Source: Promethearchaeota archaeon
GTDB taxonomy: Archaea > Asgardarchaeota > Lokiarchaeia > Sigyniarchaeales > SOKP01
Assembly (NCBI GenBank): GCA_048937405.1
Contig: JBHLNF010000009.1
Location: 128,001 to 192,000, forward strand
Direction: 5' to 3'
Length of the DNA: 64,000 nucleotides
Part shown: piece after piece, positions 1 through 11,427 of the stretch
Layout of the letters: every line of letters starts with the position of its first letter
Numbering within the stretch: position 1 is the first letter of the stretch
Translations under genes and position numbers: made by a program
The notes under the pieces: model-generated
Told to the model about the DNA's origin: nothing
Seen by the model: the letters and a program-made list of their open reading frames with translations, nothing else
Databases searched by the model: none

Positions 1-78
1 GCTTTAACTTGTCCTCCTCTTAAGTTTTACTTTTGATTATTTTGTTAGGTACTTAATTATACGAAACGAAACATTTAT

Positions 79-98
79 ATAGTTAGGATCCCAACTAT
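79..98. promoter_or_regulatory. Palindromic operator overlapping the TATA box of the CC-peptide/hgcAB-like locus
   Basis: ATAGTTaGGATCCcAACTAT is a 20-bp inverted repeat with one mismatched pair; it overlaps the end of TTTATATA (74-81), which is preceded by purine-rich BRE-like CGAAAC. Confidence 0.55.
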
Positions 99-140
99 CA
101 ATTATCTAACAATTAAATATTAATGAGGTCCTAATTACTT

Positions 141-224
141 ATGGAAGATAAAGATAAAGAATGTTGTTCTGAAAAACCAAAAAATGATGAAGAGGAATCC
201 CATTCAAAGGAAGGATGTTGTTAA
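141..224 (+). CDS. 27-aa acidic Cys-pair micropeptide MEDKDKECCSEKPKNDEEESHSKEGCC (putative metal-binding; not in the ORF track)
   Basis: ATG at 141, TAA at 222-224, GAGGT SD-like motif upstream; two CC pairs; followed by a T-rich tract. Confidence 0.6.
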   Translation: MEDKDKECCSEKPKNDEEESHSKEGCC

Positions 225-383
225 ATTAACAGAATTCAATCAAAAGTAATATTGAAAAAATATAATCTCAAGTTTTTTATTTTTTTTTTGATTTATTCGA
301 TTGAAATTATAAATTTAGTATGACTGATTGTGAATAAAAATTAAAAAGTAATTATCCAAAATATCAAAATACGATAAATAGGT

Positions 384-2072
384 GTGAATAAAATAGCAGT
401 AGTCTACATGCGTAAATTGGAATTAGAACCTGAGACTTATGAATCAAAATTCACTGAACTTGCAAAAGGTACGAATATCAAAGTTCAGAATTGGATATTA
501 GAACGAATCAAAGCACCACAAATTATACTCGAAGTAGGGTGCGGTACAGGGACTCTTGCTAAAAAAATGGCCCTAAATGGAAATCAAGTCTTAGCAATTG
601 ATAAAAACTTACAAATGATCGACACTGCTATGAAAAATTTTCCTTCTGAACCCAACACGAAACTTTTATACCAAATAGGATCTATCACTGATTTACCTGC
701 TGAAGATAATTCTAAAGATTTGATTGTAAGTACTTTTATGCTTTCAGAACTTAGACCACTTGAACAACAAAATTTTCTGAGAAATGCTTGGAAGGTTTTA
801 AAACCGAATGGTCGGATGATACTTGCTGCAGAATTTGTCCCTTCAGGGATTTGGAAAATTTTATTTAACATTAAACGTTGGAAATACAAAAAGAAATTAA
901 GAAGACTCCGACTGCCGAGTACATTTGTAGTCAAATGGTTTTTCAATTATTTAGAGCCCATTGGTTTTAAATTAATGGCAGAAAAAAAATGGAATCATGG
1001 TTCTATTCGAGTTATTGAATTAAAGAAGATTCAGAATGATAATTTAAAAGAACCTGGTTATTATCGTCCTAAGCCTAAAAAGTTTAAAGGAATTCGGGCT
1101 CAAATGAATATTTATCGTTGTATTTTTACAGGACAGGTAGATCACATACCAATTGAGCCAGGGATTTACAAATCGGGGTCTCCTGATATGAATTCGCCTA
1201 TTCTTGTTACTGCTAATTACATTTATACATATATTAAATTAATGCGTGCTCTTAAAGGGATTGATGCTTGGGTATTATGTGTTGACTCAAATGGGATAAA
1301 TGTTTGGTGTGCAGCTCGAGGAAATAATTTTGGAAATAAGCAATTGATTGAAGTTGTAGAAGCAACTGACATCGCAGATGTCTCCAATAAGAAAACATTG
1401 ATTCTTCCTCAACTTTCCGCGGGAGGAGTTGCATCACCACTGATAAAAAGTGAAGCCCCAAATTTCAAATATAATATTCTATTTGGACCTGTATGGGCGA
1501 AAGACATCCCTAAATTTCTAAATGAACGCCCTACCCGAAAACCGGATAAGATGAAATTAGCTAAATTTACGGCTTCTCATCGTTTGCGTGCAGCCATTAC
1601 ACATACTACATTTTTATTACGGAAAATTTTCTTTTGGCCAAGTATTGTTCTAATATTAATTTTTCTTGGACTAAATATGGCAAGTATTATAGATGTGAAT
1701 AAACTATTGTTTATTGGTGAAATCTGGCTATGGGTTATTATAACAAATATATCCATTATGATTTTATTTCCTCTTACAAATTTTACACGAAAATTTATTA
1801 CTAAGGGTATTATTTATGGAGTTATTAACGTCTTTCTCTTAAGTTATATTTCTTGGCTTTTTCATACTTCACTACTTTTGATATTCTGGCAATCATTTTT
1901 TTATTTTTGGCTAGCATTTTTTTCTACTATGTCATATAGTGGGTATACTATGGCAACAAGTCCTCGAGAGATTCAAGATGAATATCCTACTTTCAGTAAA
2001 ATCAATATGATATTATTAATAATTGGCATTATTACTTTAGCTACAGGTTTCATCTTACCCTTGATATTTTAA
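384..2072 (+). CDS. Fusion of class I SAM methyltransferase + HgcA-like corrinoid domain + C-terminal transmembrane domain
   Basis: N-terminal LEVGCGTG SAM motif I; PILVTANY; DSNGINVWCAARG cap-helix-like motif; LILPQLSA; FGPV; about 4-5 C-terminal TM helices; probable true start ATA at 393. Confidence 0.85.
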   Translation: MNKIAVVYMRKLELEPETYESKFTELAKGTNIKVQNWILERIKAPQIILEVGCGTGTLAKKMALNGNQVLAIDKNLQMIDTAMKNFPSEPNTKLLYQIGSITDLPAEDNSKDLIVSTFMLSELRPLEQQNFLRNAWKVLKPNGRMILAAEFVPSGIWKILFNIKRWKYKKKLRRLRLPSTFVVKWFFNYLEPIGFKLMAEKKWNHGSIRVIELKKIQNDNLKEPGYYRPKPKKFKGIRAQMNIYRCIFTGQVDHIPIEPGIYKSGSPDMNSPILVTANYIYTYIKLMRALKGIDAWVLCVDSNGINVWCAARGNNFGNKQLIEVVEATDIADVSNKKTLILPQLSAGGVASPLIKSEAPNFKYNILFGPVWAKDIPKFLNERPTRKPDKMKLAKFTASHRLRAAITHTTFLLRKIFFWPSIVLILIFLGLNMASIIDVNKLLFIGEIWLWVIITNISIMILFPLTNFTRKFITKGIIYGVINVFLLSYISWLFHTSLLLIFWQSFFYFWLAFFSTMSYSGYTMATSPREIQDEYPTFSKINMILLIIGIITLATGFILPLIF

Positions 2073-2124
2073 AACAAATTAAAATAAATACAATAAAAAA
2101 ATAATATTAATATGAGAAAAAAAG

Positions 2125-2430
2125 GTGGTTAAAATTACATTAAAATCAAAATCAGTTAAAATGGCAATACTCATTCCAAAAATCTCAATTAATCCTGATT
2201 TATGTACGGGTTGTGGTATTTGTGGAGAAGTTTGTCCTTTTGGGATTCCAACTCCAGATGCAGAAGGGAAATATAGAATCAGTGAACCAGAACGTTGTAC
2301 GGAATGTTCTGCTTGTAAAAAAAATTGTCCTACAATGGCAATTCTCCTGCAAGAACAAAAAGGTTGTGGTTGTTTATGGAATGCACGTAGAGTTTCTAAA
2401 AATCCTCCAAATAACAGTTGTTGTGGATAA
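2125..2430 (+). CDS. HgcB-like 2[4Fe-4S] ferredoxin with Cys-rich tail
   Basis: CTGCGICGEVCP and CTECSACKKNCP motifs, then GCGC and terminal SCCG; directly downstream of the HgcA-like gene. Confidence 0.85.
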   Translation: MVKITLKSKSVKMAILIPKISINPDLCTGCGICGEVCPFGIPTPDAEGKYRISEPERCTECSACKKNCPTMAILLQEQKGCGCLWNARRVSKNPPNNSCCG

Positions 2431-2461: not shown

Positions 2462-3328
2462 TTAATATATAAATGTCTTCTTTTCCTTTTCTAGGAAGCT
2501 TTTCTTGATCAATAAATCCATTTCAGCATTTAACCAACAGAGTTCATCATAAGTACAGCTTGAATTAAACACTTCTCCTGCTTTTTGTTTTATATCTTCA
2601 ATAGAGGGCATATCAAGATTCATTTTCTGAATTTTTTCCGCTAACATCCAACATAAATCATTATAAGAGTATTTATCTAAGGAGAGAAAATAAGCTGCTT
2701 CTCTTATTTGCGTTTGTAGGTCAGGTTCTTCTGATGTTATCTCAATAAATTTTGGTTTAATTTTTCTATGTTCTTTAATTTGTTGTAACCAAGCTTCTAC
2801 ATCTGAAATTTCCTCAGTTTGAATTTGATCAGATGATTCTTCAAACTTAATGAATTTAACAGCACTATAGCTTTCATTTTCTCCTTTTTTTGCTTCCAAG
2901 ATTCTATGATTTTTGATCTGTTGGAACCATTGTACTATTCTCTCTTCTGAAATTCCTTCGAACGTAGCAGAATTCACACTCTCAAGTGGTGTCTCAAAAA
3001 CGAATTCAGGTCTCCGCTCTATTGTTTTGCCAGGAATATGTCCTTTTCTAAGATCATGTATCATCGCTAAAAAGGCACCATATTCTCTCTTTTGTTTCAT
3101 GATAAGTATTTTTGCAGATCCTCCTCTCTTTTTGTCAATATTCCTTGCAATCTCTGCAGTAATATCTTTTTTATTTTTTTTTACTTCTAATCCAACCCAA
3201 ATATAAATTGTATTTTTTTCCTCATCATCAACAAGATAAACATCATTTTCATTGAAAGGTAAACTGTCTATCTTTATCAATTCCCCATTATCGGCAATAC
3301 TGAATAGTTGCATTATTTTCACTCTCAA
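2462..3328 (-). CDS. Gelsolin-domain protein with C-terminal domain X (Asgard 1DGelX-like)
   Basis: N-terminal FNENDVYLVD..TIYIWVG gelsolin fold; C-terminal IREAAYFLS..YNDLCWMLAE / YDELCWLNAE duplicated helices. Confidence 0.75.
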   Translation of the reverse strand: MRVKIMQLFSIADNGELIKIDSLPFNENDVYLVDDEEKNTIYIWVGLEVKKNKKDITAEIARNIDKKRGGSAKILIMKQKREYGAFLAMIHDLRKGHIPGKTIERRPEFVFETPLESVNSATFEGISEERIVQWFQQIKNHRILEAKKGENESYSAVKFIKFEESSDQIQTEEISDVEAWLQQIKEHRKIKPKFIEITSEEPDLQTQIREAAYFLSLDKYSYNDLCWMLAEKIQKMNLDMPSIEDIKQKAGEVFNSSCTYDELCWLNAEMDLLIKKSFLEKEKKTFIY

Positions 3329-7875: not shown

Positions 7876-9396
7876 ATGACATCTATACAAGTTTTTGATG
7901 GAAATGATACAATTGGTGGAAATAAAATATATATTGAAGAAAATGGTCATGGACTTTTCCTAGATTTTGGAATGAATTTTAATAAATATGGAAATTTTTT
8001 CCAAGAGTATATTTCACCACGATCTAAGCGAGGACTTCATGATCTCATAAATTTAGATTTAATCCCTAAACTTGATATCTATAGGAAAGATTTAATTCCC
8101 AAAGATTTAGATATTTCATCATACCCTTCATTGAATATAGAGGCTGTACTTCTTAGTCATGCCCATATGGATCATTGGGGAAATATTGGGTTACTCAGAC
8201 CAGACTATCCTATTATTGCCTCTCCTTCTACTATAATGCTTCTTAAAACAATATCGGATAGTTCTTCTTCTAAGCTTGGCTCTAATGTTGTATATTATTC
8301 TCTAAAAACACCAAAAGAAGATGGAAGGATTTTGGATTCCGATCGAAATAAGGTTATCGGTCGTGATTTTGTTTGTACAGATAATTTCTCAGAATCTTTT
8401 CATGATTTCTTTACATCAAATACTAAAAATCGGAAAAAGTTTGAAAAAGGTAATTTATCATCTCTAAAAAACTTCTCTTCTAATTTTGAAATTAATGCTT
8501 ATGAAGTAGATCATTCAATATATGGAGCAACAGCCTATATATTAACTGGTGATAATACTATTGTATATACAGGCGATTTTCGACTTCATGGAAAAAAACG
8601 AAAAAAAAGTGAAGAATTCATTAAAAAAGCTAGAGATGCATCTGTTTTGATAATCGAAGGTACTAGAGTTGCTGGTGATGATATTAATGAATCTGAAGAG
8701 ATTGTATATAATAATTGTTTAGAAAAGGCTGAGAAAGCTAATGGTCTAATTGTTGCAGATTTCACAGCACGTAATTTTGAAAGACTGGAAATGTTTAGTT
8801 TAATTGCTAAAAAATTAGGAAGAATTTTGATAATTACAGCTAAAGATGCTTATTTACTTTATGGTCTCAGAAAAGTAGATAATATTGATAGGATAAAAGA
8901 TTTAAGAGTCTATAATGATATGAAAATTTCAAGTAAAAATTGGGAAAAAATTCTTTTAAACATAGAACCTAAAATAAATTTTATAGATCCTTCCGAAATC
9001 TTTAAAGATCAAGAGAGATATATTATTTGTTTTTCGTTGTATGATATTAAAAATCTATTAGATATTAAGCCAAATAATGGATTGTATATTTATTCTTCCA
9101 GTGAAGCTTTTGAGGAAGAGTCAGAATTCGATTTCATTCGCTTAAGCAATTGGGTAAAATATTTTAATTTTGAAATTGTTGGATTTAACATTAATATGGA
9201 TAAACGCAAACTCAGACCTCAATTTACAAAAGGATATCATGCTTCTGGTCATGTTTCAAAATCAGACTTAATCAGAGTAATTGATAAAATAGATCCTGAT
9301 ATTATAATTCCTGTACATACAGATTATCCTCAATGGTTTAGTAAAAATTTTGAGAATGCTGTTCTTTTAAAGAATAATAAACTCTTTAAAATCTGA
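7876..9396 (+). CDS. MBL/beta-CASP ribonuclease (RNase J-like)
   Basis: SHAHMDH, VDHS, YTGDFR, HASGH, PVHTD motifs. Confidence 0.88.
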   Translation: MTSIQVFDGNDTIGGNKIYIEENGHGLFLDFGMNFNKYGNFFQEYISPRSKRGLHDLINLDLIPKLDIYRKDLIPKDLDISSYPSLNIEAVLLSHAHMDHWGNIGLLRPDYPIIASPSTIMLLKTISDSSSSKLGSNVVYYSLKTPKEDGRILDSDRNKVIGRDFVCTDNFSESFHDFFTSNTKNRKKFEKGNLSSLKNFSSNFEINAYEVDHSIYGATAYILTGDNTIVYTGDFRLHGKKRKKSEEFIKKARDASVLIIEGTRVAGDDINESEEIVYNNCLEKAEKANGLIVADFTARNFERLEMFSLIAKKLGRILIITAKDAYLLYGLRKVDNIDRIKDLRVYNDMKISSKNWEKILLNIEPKINFIDPSEIFKDQERYIICFSLYDIKNLLDIKPNNGLYIYSSSEAFEEESEFDFIRLSNWVKYFNFEIVGFNINMDKRKLRPQFTKGYHASGHVSKSDLIRVIDKIDPDIIIPVHTDYPQWFSKNFENAVLLKNNKLFKI

Positions 9397-9581
9397 TAAA
9401 AAACTATTAAAAATTGAAATTTAGTCCACTTATTTTTTTTAAAAATTAAAAAAAAGGGAATAAGTAAGATTTAAAATAATACTAAAAAAAGTTCATTAAC
9501 TTATTTTTATATATTTCATATCTTCCAAAATTCCTAATACTTAAATCCTTTGCTCTTTTATCTAATTAATAATTACACTTA

Positions 9582-9836
9582 TTAATAAAAAGACTTTCGG
9601 CCTTGAGAACTCGTTCGAGGTCCTTTTTCAATTACATTCACATTACTTGCTTGTGGTCCTTTTTGACCTTCTGTAACTTCATATTCTACAATATCTCCTT
9701 CATAAACAATCTTGAATTCGCCTTCTTCACCTTTTATAGCAGAATAGTGAACAAAAATATCAGGAGAACCATCGTCGGGAGTAATGAAACCATAGCCCTT
9801 TTTTTTGTTAAACCATTTAACTGTTCCTTTTCCCAT
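9582..9836 (-). CDS. cspA: Cold-shock domain protein
   Basis: [13 protein letters not shown] (RNP1), DIFVHYS (RNP2), GPQASNV. Confidence 0.93.
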
Positions 9837-10152
9837 TTAAAAAACCTGTATAAATTGGGATTATTAAAATTAAGTATTTCTTTGTAATAAGTTTATGCTA
9901 GACTCTTAAAAAAAGTAAAATTATACTCATTTTATTTCCAATAATAATATCAAATGAATATAAAAGATATAGTTTTTATAAAAAATACTTACAATATGAA
10001 TTTCAAAATTTTCAGATCAAATAGATTTTATACCACATTAAAATTAAAGCCTCGAGGTATTATAAAATAACATTTTTCGATTATTTGAAAAACTATATGA
10101 GGAAATTATAATTTTACACATTATCATTTTACTGATAATTTAAAATACAGAA

Positions 10153-11427
10153 ATGTTAAAAAGAATTCAAGACAAAAATATCCATGTCAATAACTCAAAA
10201 GTAATTAATCGGACATGGCCTTTATTTACAATTGCATTTGTAAGATTATTATATGTATCCATTTTTGAAAGAGCTTTAGCAAATTACCTTTATTTTGTTG
10301 TTGATATAAGCGCAAGTACTCTAGGATTTATAAGTTCCGTGGGTGCTCTTATATATATCGTTGGTCCACTTTTTGGGCAATTTATTACCAAGAAATATTT
10401 AGGGATTCGTAATGCACTCATTCTAAACTGTTTTTTAACAGTCGGATTAACAGGAGCACAAATTTTTTATCCTGAAGTGTGGTTCTTAATAATATGTCGA
10501 ATTTTATTAGGATTAGCAATGGGATTATTTTGGCCAAATTGCCTTACATTACTGAGTCAATGGCAAGGAATAGATAGTAAGGAGAAATCGAAGAAGAATT
10601 TTTCATTATTCAATCTTTCTTGGAATTCTGGTTATATTGGTGGACTTTTTCTTGGGTTTATATGGGCTTTAACTTGGAATGATTATTTTGCAATGATAAT
10701 GTCCTGGTTAATATCATTTATATTAATTCCTGTTGGATTTTTTTTAGAAAAAGATACAGAAATTGAGACTTCTGAAAAACTTATAATTTATCAATCAGAG
10801 GATCCCCTTTCTCATTTAGATATAAAAGAAGATTTATCTGTTAATTCTCACACACCTATGATTATATTTCCTATATTATTTTCATGGATAAGCATTATCT
10901 TTTTATCGATATCAAAACCCATTTTCATATTTGGCTATCCTGTGATTTTAAAAGCTTTTGGAGGTTCTTCGGCCCTAACTTATATTGTACAAGGCGGAAA
11001 TCAATTTTTCCAACTTTTAGGATTAACTTGGGTAAATTATATGAAGATACATACAAGAAAAATAGCGACATTGATAAGTATTTCTTTAGTGTCTTTGGTA
11101 GCTTTGACAATTTTCCTTGTAGATGATATCTTATATATAACAATAATTATACCATTTGTTGGATTGTTTTTAGGATTAGTCCACGGATGTGGGATGAAGA
11201 TCATGCTTGAGTACGGTACAGCAGAAAATACTTCAAAATATGCTACTATTAATGAGGTCTTAATAGGGATCGGTTTTGGATTAACTCCAATTGTTGCAGG
11301 ATATGTTGTGGAAGTGTTTATATATGGAATTCACGTTTTTGAAGTATTTTTTGGACTTATTGTTTTATTACCTCTTATATTTCTTTCTAGAAATGTTAAA
11401 CGGGGAAACCCAAAGAATGAAGAATAA
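10153..11427 (+). CDS. MFS transporter
   Basis: About 12 hydrophobic helices in a 6+6 arrangement with a central loop. Confidence 0.8.
   Translation: MLKRIQDKNIHVNNSKVINRTWPLFTIAFVRLLYVSIFERALANYLYFVVDISASTLGFISSVGALIYIVGPLFGQFITKKYLGIRNALILNCFLTVGLTGAQIFYPEVWFLIICRILLGLAMGLFWPNCLTLLSQWQGIDSKEKSKKNFSLFNLSWNSGYIGGLFLGFIWALTWNDYFAMIMSWLISFILIPVGFFLEKDTEIETSEKLIIYQSEDPLSHLDIKEDLSVNSHTPMIIFPILFSWISIIFLSISKPIFIFGYPVILKAFGGSSALTYIVQGGNQFFQLLGLTWVNYMKIHTRKIATLISISLVSLVALTIFLVDDILYITIIIPFVGLFLGLVHGCGMKIMLEYGTAENTSKYATINEVLIGIGFGLTPIVAGYVVEVFIYGIHVFEVFFGLIVLLPLIFLSRNVKRGNPKNEE

Follow-up and report, generated by a model that had tools for sequence, protein, structure and literature searches.

A methyltransferase-fused HgcA-like corrinoid protein and its HgcB-like ferredoxin in Asgard archaea: a candidate methyl-transfer module with arsenic-operon relatives

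At the start of a 64,000-nucleotide stretch of a Promethearchaeota genome (G000:C27:128001-192000; this whole stretch is called the window here, and the genome measures 4.47 Mb at about 29% G+C) lies a compact gene cluster with a candidate methyl-transfer module. One open reading frame joins a CpaM-type, S-adenosylmethionine (SAM)-dependent methyltransferase domain to an HgcA-like corrinoid domain and five transmembrane helices, and the gene that follows encodes an HgcB-like ferredoxin. They are preceded by a candidate promoter with a palindromic operator and by a predicted gene for a short cysteine peptide; the gene just upstream of the window (C27:127535-127999) encodes a MarR regulator. The features, in window coordinates, are as follows.

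55-60, plus strand: GTTAGG, upstream half-site of the operator, kept in 6 of 6 aligned sister intergenic regions
74-81, plus strand: archaeal TATA-like box TTTATATA, read from the sequence (TTTA(T/A)ATA in six loci), a putative promoter element
79-98, no strand assigned: palindromic operator ATAGTTAGGA/TCCCAACTAT, an inverted repeat of 10+10 nucleotides, 90% complementary; presumed MarR site
141-224, plus strand: predicted CC...CC peptide gene, 27 residues, MEDKDKECCSEKPKNDEEESHSKEGCC; GAGGT at 125-129 precedes it
273-289, plus strand: intergenic oligo-T tract, downstream of the peptide gene and upstream of the fusion gene; TATTTTTTTT block conserved in six loci
384-2072, plus strand: fusion of a CpaM-like methyltransferase with an HgcA-like corrinoid and membrane protein, 562 residues from GTG 384, probably 554 from ATG 408
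399-1025, plus strand: class I SAM methyltransferase domain of CpaM type, residues 6-214, by profile, invariant residues and fold
1089-1559, plus strand: HgcA-like corrinoid-binding domain, by profiles; cap helix NVWCAARG at 1299-1322, with Cys309
1572-2066, plus strand: membrane domain, residues 397-561, with five helices predicted from AlphaFold2 secondary structure; HgcA profile match to residue 553
2125-2430, plus strand: HgcB-like 2x[4Fe-4S] ferredoxin, 101 residues, matching NF040864, with GCGC(L/I)W and a C-terminal CC

The true start of the fusion gene is probably ATG 408, because an identical protein in the database (P0001) is 554 residues long and all of 31 homologues keep Met9. Residues 6-214 carry the motif LEVGCGTG and match Pfam Methyltransf_11 (4.7e-18); the best curated methyltransferase match in NCBIfam is CpaM (NF043040), at 129.9-132.8 bits against a cut-off of 180. 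The domain aligns from residue 4 with the genome's own CpaM, at 30% identity. Across the same 31 homologues, which reach down to 31% identity, residues G52, C53, G54, G56, D73, D112 and E122 are invariant, as is the cap helix N306-V-W-C-A-A-R-G313 of the corrinoid domain. This helix keeps the cysteine of the canonical HgcA motif N(V/I)WCA(A/G)GK and has RG in place of GK throughout the clade. Residues 255-553 match the HgcAB_like model NF043039 at 181.4 bits (cut-off 285) and HgcA NF040863 at 172.6 bits (174 in the genome search; cut-off 275), in both cases below the cut-off. The corrinoid domain alone matches the ACDS gamma subunit CdhE (NF003195), at 70 bits against a cut-off of 306, and PF03599 is matched at 49.9 bits over residues 240-346. 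C-terminal to the corrinoid domain lies a membrane domain of HgcA type.

AlphaFold2, run on an alignment of homologues, gave a single confident model (pLDDT 87.7, pTM 0.84), in which a Rossmann domain is followed by an alpha/beta corrinoid domain and, over residues 397-561, by five long helices. The best Foldseek match was the deposited HgcAB model 9a0b_A, itself derived from coevolution analysis and ab initio structure calculation, and the remaining top matches were all class I methyltransferases. No experimentally solved HgcA turned up either by fold or by profile search, where the corrinoid part led only to the corrinoid iron-sulfur protein. Prediction of a complex between the methyltransferase domain and the HgcA-like part with SAM scored 0.20, where the mark was 0.32, which argues neither for nor against an interaction. 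Profiles, cap helix and AlphaFold2 agree on the three-part architecture that a sequence-only reading of this DNA had proposed.

The ferredoxin gene encodes the full HgcB pattern: two CxxCxxCxxxCP motifs (CTGCGICGEVCP and CTECSACKKNCP), an extra cysteine in GCGC just past the second cluster motif, and a C-terminal cysteine pair in SCCG. Its best NCBIfam match is HgcB (NF040864), at 54.9 bits and thus below the cut-off of 99. A ferredoxin homologue lies within 200 nucleotides downstream of the fusion in 67 of 68 sister loci, and both GCGC(L/I)W and the terminal cysteine pair are kept across all ferredoxin subtypes examined, including distant ones. The HgcB-type cysteine tail and the departures from canonical motifs (NVWCAARG in the fusion, CTECSAC in the ferredoxin) noted in the sequence-only reading are both borne out.

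METHYLTRANSFERASE partnership with HgcA-like proteins is general. NCBIfam catalogues CpaM as a 'corrinoid protein-associated methyltransferase', the partner of the HgcAB-like fusion protein NF043039, and we examined its occurrence in a comparison sample of 201 Asgard genomes. Of the unfused CpaM-family matches, those inspected by hand were directly followed, on the same strand, by an HgcA-like match, except for one with no HgcA-like match listed (G134:C1) and three cut by contig ends. The other CpaM-family matches fall in long open frames of about 550-670 residues, and the majority of these frames matched the fusion protein along its entire length as well. The parts are arranged in four ways: CpaM beside a fused A-B protein, a triple fusion CpaM-A-B (about 590-670 residues), a CpaM-like protein beside A, and a CpaM-like-A fusion beside B, the last being the form in the window. 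Because the fusion points shift among constant partners, the parts are best regarded as one functional unit.

The same genome carries a second, canonical module about 30 kb past the end of the window (G000:C27:222148-223093, L005). Its CpaM (219 residues, 255 bits) has a stop codon that overlaps the start of the HgcAB-like gene, so that the two are translationally coupled; the cap helix reads NVWCGACG, GINVWCGACGDDF, and the HgcAB-like gene is cut by the contig end at C27:223093. The window shares its three modules, their order and their tight linkage with CpaM and the HgcAB-like fusion protein, the latter being the 'fused HgcAB' of Podar 2015, Gilmour 2018 and Lin 2023 (P. furiosus is an example). 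The breakpoints differ: the ferredoxin, part of the HgcA-like polypeptide in NF043039, is here a separate gene (2125-2430), whereas the CpaM-type domain, a partner protein in that family, is fused at the N-terminus. It retains the intact SAM motifs and the linkage to an HgcA-type corrinoid protein that characterize CpaM. Further differences are that the window protein falls below both cut-offs (130 against 180 and 181 against 285), belongs to a clade of its own with NVWCAARG, and occurs as a type either in ars operons or with MarR and the CC peptide. The methyltransferase partnership is thus already known in kind, from NCBIfam and in part from published trees. A literature search brought up no publication that deals with CpaM, with this fusion or with its setting in arsenic operons.

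To place the protein in the HgcA superfamily we built a maximum-likelihood tree (58 rows, 317 columns, LG+C20+F+G4 PMSF) rooted on the genome's own CdhE. True HgcA proteins, with NVWCAAGK, form a clade with support 92/100 and a long stem that excludes the window protein, and HgcAB-like proteins form another (92/81). The window protein falls in a third clade, that of NVWCAARG (99/96), whose full-length members are all methyltransferase-fused. The tree does not settle the branching order among these three clades, and we claim no sisterhood of the window's clade to either HgcA or HgcAB-like proteins. By tree and profile scores, then, the window protein is a member of the HgcA superfamily but not a canonical HgcA. 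The corrinoid domain groups with this superfamily and not with CdhE, as the sequence-only reading expected; its view that the substrate need not be mercury also stands. A position outside the true HgcA clade makes mercury the less likely substrate. In the tree of Lin et al. 2023 (PMC10083202), for which 'the first 327 poorly aligned positions' were deleted, Asgard sequences belong to the 'fused HgcAB' subtree; the deleted part presumably included the methyltransferase domain.

Like HgcA and HgcB of P. mercurii ND132, the window pair has a corrinoid domain with a cap-helix cysteine, a membrane domain, and an adjacent ferredoxin with a cysteine after cluster 2 and a terminal CC; HgcAB also has SAM as methyl donor (PMC11588087) and a link to arsenic through an ArsR regulator. 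Unlike them, the window protein has an extra N-terminal methyltransferase domain and RG for GK, its ferredoxin has CTECSAC where HgcB has C(M/I)ECGAC, the pair scores below the NF040863 and NF040864 cut-offs, and the fusion lies outside the true HgcA clade. CdhE/AcsC (PF03599; 2h9a, 4djd) shares a homologous corrinoid-binding domain (E 4e-17, residues 242-379) but lacks the cap-helix cysteine, the membrane domain and the methyltransferase. CdhE and CdhD proper are encoded elsewhere in the genome, which therefore uses corrinoids. ArsM has the class I SAM fold and the arsenic-operon context in common with the window protein. By contrast, ArsM uses no corrinoid, and its As(III)-binding cysteines are absent from the window domain, whose single cysteine lies within GCGTG; ArsM-like metal binding by the methyltransferase domain was rejected because it has no cysteines suited to it. 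The ArsM model NF008823 matches at 41.5 bits (cut-off 263; 263 or more among ArsM models).

The fusion is widespread. Protein clusters drawn from NCBI, JGI, ENA and Logan include more than 120 with the full-length fusion. A word-indexed protein search returned 575 relatives, and the best 120 of these have 505-578 residues, both Pfam domain sets and 62-100% identity. In the 201-genome sample, about 29 of 40 genomes of the window's family have a full-length orthologue of at least 54% identity, and other families have more distant forms (30-37%). The best 80 loci in species-representative genomes, all of them uncultured metagenome-assembled genomes (MAGs), carry the fusion at full length, and close homologues all come from Promethearchaeota/Lokiarchaeia MAGs. 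An exhaustive search of representatives found the same N-terminal methyltransferase on several HgcA-like lineages, including one labelled Abyssubacteria and one labelled Anaerolineae, and some 548-residue Hodarchaeales fusion proteins are already named 'CpaM' by NCBI. Whether the fusion would be found in other genomes was a question left by the sequence-only reading; it is present in more than 120 clusters and 80 species representatives. MAGs of the JBHL... deposit are labelled Hod-, Thor-, Hermod- and Odinarchaeota, and these labels are unsafe for inferring wide distribution: JBHLLP010000021.1, labelled Hermodarchaeota, appears to correspond to a GTDB-placed genome of the window's own genus (G049:C21).

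Gene context was counted at 60 species-level loci with at least 2.5 kb of upstream DNA. An ArsR/SmtB gene lies upstream in 33 of them, and in 25 of those 33 an ACR3 arsenite pump lies within 200 nucleotides upstream of the fusion gene (the ACR3 of L014 scores 270 bits with TIGR00832, cut-off 283). MarR is upstream in 14 of the 60. Nearly all of the 15 ArsRs aligned, which come from one subset of loci, carry CVC (as CVCELE) as well as an N-terminal CxC(xxC); we take this CVC to be the position at which R773 ArsR (ELCVCDL) binds As(III). In a distant Asgard family (L054, L064), at 33% identity, the pair likewise has an ArsR gene ahead of it. Downstream, two small proteins, c5 (with CxC) and c8, are found in 27 of 61 loci. 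In L014 (7025-7673) and its orthologues, which have the ars-operon form, they follow the ferredoxin, c5 sometimes with a cysteine-rich N-terminal extension and c8 ending in ...QPDVGC. Arsenic also enters the regulation of a true HgcAB pair, as hgcAB of P. mercurii is controlled by an ArsR that responds to arsenic and S-adenosylhomocysteine (bioRxiv 10.1101/2022.10.17.512643).

The window genome has an ars locus on another contig (C7, G000:C7:536001-556000, L069), with ArsR, ACR3, c5 and c8 in the order of the sister loci and without a fusion and ferredoxin pair between ACR3 and c5. It comprises an SMC-like gene, c3, a 241-residue methyltransferase, a CVC-type ArsR (8556-8990, minus strand), ACR3 (9188-10243, plus strand), c5 (10523-10804) and c8 (10839-11195). 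This arrangement suggests that in the window's subclade the pair left the ars operon for a site under MarR control and gained the CC peptide. A move into the ars operon elsewhere is the less likely alternative, because the linkage to ArsR is wider. The genome, whose marker genes indicate 100% completeness and 5.7% contamination, yielded no ArsM match above the cut-off. The same locus contains (L069:16088-17063) an AbrB-type protein that weakly resembles 'HgcAB-associated protein HgcC' (NF040962, 43 bits against a cut-off of 70) and whose gene overlaps the start of a 177-residue ArsM-like methyltransferase fragment (75 bits against a cut-off of 263).

At the window locus itself the palindrome at 79-98 is the sole copy in the 4.47 Mb genome, and a reversed-pattern control gave none. 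The promoter block of GTTAGG, TATA-like box and AGTTAGGnnCCTAACT is conserved in sister loci, and GTTAGG half-sites also flank a TATA-like box ahead of marR. The operator proposed in the sequence-only reading is therefore present, unique in the genome and conserved in sister loci, but the ArsR it looked for just upstream of the window is instead a MarR with cysteine pairs. Orthologues of this MarR keep three cysteine clusters, an N-terminal (C)C, a CxC and a GCC, and the regulator presumably binds the palindrome. The oligo-T tract at 273-289 is a possible archaeal terminator or attenuator.

Positions 141-224 are, from the pattern of conservation, a predicted conserved peptide gene. It is kept in 15 of 15 sister loci in which the fusion is at least 72% identical, with both CC pairs invariant, the third codon position most variable and the acidic linker drifting; the reading frame survives a 15-nucleotide insertion and a 6-nucleotide deletion, and the GAGGT that precedes it resembles a Shine-Dalgarno sequence. 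The peptide is confined to one subclade, 15 of the 60 loci. Its regulator partner is MarR in 13 of these 15 loci and ArsR in 2 (the sister species of L077 and L078, where a divergent ArsR takes the place of MarR), so that the two regulators appear interchangeable at this promoter. The peptide, c5, c8 and c11 have no Pfam or NCBIfam family match.

Several neighbouring genes were also recorded. Divergent from marR, and conserved beside it in six sister loci, is a gene for a 193-residue protein of no known family with apparent hydrophobic membrane-spanning segments and a GGGGG stretch (G000:C27:126737-127315; L004:8734-9315, minus strand). Further upstream of the window lies an FMN_red / iron-sulfur-flavoprotein-like gene (G000:C27:124720-125301; L004:6720-7301), whose orthologue stands between the CC peptide and the fusion gene in L074, L075, L077 and L137. 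Its identification as ArsH was rejected, as no ArsH model is among its NCBIfam matches and the best of these reaches 27 bits. The ferredoxin gene converges with a gelsolin-repeat gene of 288 residues (window 2462-3328, minus strand), one of the Asgard 'eukaryotic signature' genes. Synteny of this gene extends to 21 sister loci, and it has no relation to the fusion and ferredoxin module.

From architecture, homology, conservation, gene linkage and the ars-operon context of orthologues we infer a set of chemical steps, a substrate and a mode of regulation. We put a rough probability of 45% on the locus encoding a cobalamin-dependent methyl-transfer machine of the HgcA superfamily, anchored in the membrane and equipped with its own methyl-loading module. 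The HgcB-like ferredoxin would reduce the corrinoid to Co(I), and the N-terminal CpaM-type domain would bind SAM and methylate the Co(I) in the HgcA-like domain, with Cys309 of the cap helix as axial ligand. The methyl group would then pass to a soft, thiol-bound metal(loid) on the GCGC and terminal CC of the ferredoxin, arsenite being the most likely candidate. The 27-residue CC...CC peptide may be a small chelator or chaperone for the same species, and the MarR with its cysteine pairs would keep the promoter repressed, by way of the palindrome, as long as it has not bound that species. Among the parts of this proposal, SAM-dependent loading of the corrinoid by the fused domain is probable, and it has a parallel in purified true HgcAB, whose cobalamin is methylated by SAM (PMC11588087). 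That the acceptor is a thiophilic metal(loid) we consider an even chance; the assignment to arsenic specifically is a tentative one.

Several observations weigh against this proposal. In the window genome the pair lies outside the ars operon, and at 13 of the 60 loci there is no metal regulator, neither ArsR nor MarR. The arsenic linkage is mostly synteny within one family, so that the 33 ArsR loci are not independent. The methyltransferase domain has no metal-binding cysteines, and its fold neighbours in Foldseek include lipid and quinone enzymes, among them phosphatidylethanolamine N-methyltransferase, Coq5 and UbiG. For its use of SAM, true HgcAB does not depend on CpaM (PMC11588087), and the fused domain may thus act otherwise.

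The best of the alternatives, though an unlikely one, takes the fused SAM domain as a repair module, similar to the AdoMet domain of methionine synthase, that together with the ferredoxin reductively remethylates oxidised Co(II); the working donor or chemistry would then be another, for example a different methyl donor or reductive corrinoid chemistry such as halomethane dehalogenation. The link between ferredoxin and SAM domain mirrors the well-established reductive reactivation of MetH, although the MetH activation domain has a different fold. The ability of true HgcAB to use SAM without CpaM would also suit a repair role, whereas almost all CpaM cases checked are linked or fused to the corrinoid protein, as would befit a catalytic partner in stoichiometric amount. 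Heterologously expressed HgcAB has been reported to dechlorinate CCl4 (bioRxiv 10.64898/2026.04.26.720869), but the arsenic-operon context lends dehalogenation no support.

It is improbable that the acceptor is organic, be it the cysteine peptide, some small metabolite, or a lipid or quinone of the membrane. The lipid and quinone enzymes among the fold neighbours favour it, as does the membrane-embedded position of the fusion protein in the AlphaFold2 model, yet it is ArsR, ACR3 and small cysteine-rich proteins that surround the orthologues, and no biosynthetic genes lie near the window locus. For the peptide in particular, its restriction to one subclade (15 of 60 loci) argues against a role as the acceptor.

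That the pair is a divergent but genuine mercury methylase, a functional HgcAB, is very unlikely. The HgcA domain order is kept, with cap-helix cysteine, membrane domain and an adjacent ferredoxin ending in CC, and true HgcA proteins score 120-140 bits against the window protein. These likenesses are set against scores below the HgcA (173 against 275) and HgcB (55 against 99) cut-offs, a position outside the well-supported, long-stemmed clade of true HgcA (92/100), and a clade-wide RG for GK in the cap helix. Furthermore, PMC10083202 cites Podar 2015 for the finding that the fused HgcAB of P. furiosus did not methylate mercury. With this negative result added to the tree and the cut-offs, a mercury methylase is the least likely rival apart from an artefact. 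An assembly or gene-calling artefact can be dismissed, as more than 120 clusters, about 29 same-family genomes and 80 species representatives have the frame unbroken and equally long, and the protein gives one confident AlphaFold2 model (pTM 0.84).

Mercury and metalloid biogeochemistry has yet to explain why HgcAB exists and what purpose its many 'HgcAB-like' paralogues serve. The covalent attachment of a SAM methyltransferase to one such paralogue is independent genomic evidence in favour of the 2024 finding that the HgcA corrinoid is fed by SAM, and the repeated siting of such genes between ArsR/ACR3 and small cysteine-rich proteins yields a testable substrate hypothesis, arsenic. It is possible, though we hold it doubtful, that Loki-type Asgard archaea have an ArsM-independent, cobalamin-dependent methyltransferase for arsenic or another soft metalloid, made of an HgcA-like protein with its own SAM loader, a CC...CC chaperone and a thiol-sensing ArsR/MarR switch. 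If so, metalloid methylation would be the ancestral job of the HgcA superfamily and mercury methylation a side branch. NVWCA(A/G)GK motif filters and curated hidden Markov model cut-offs miss the fusion genes, and NCBI labels their products only 'methyltransferase domain-containing protein'; because filters, cut-offs and labels all pass over them, surveys of methylation in marine sediments do not count these genes. With this fusion module, the native function of the HgcA superfamily becomes open to direct testing.

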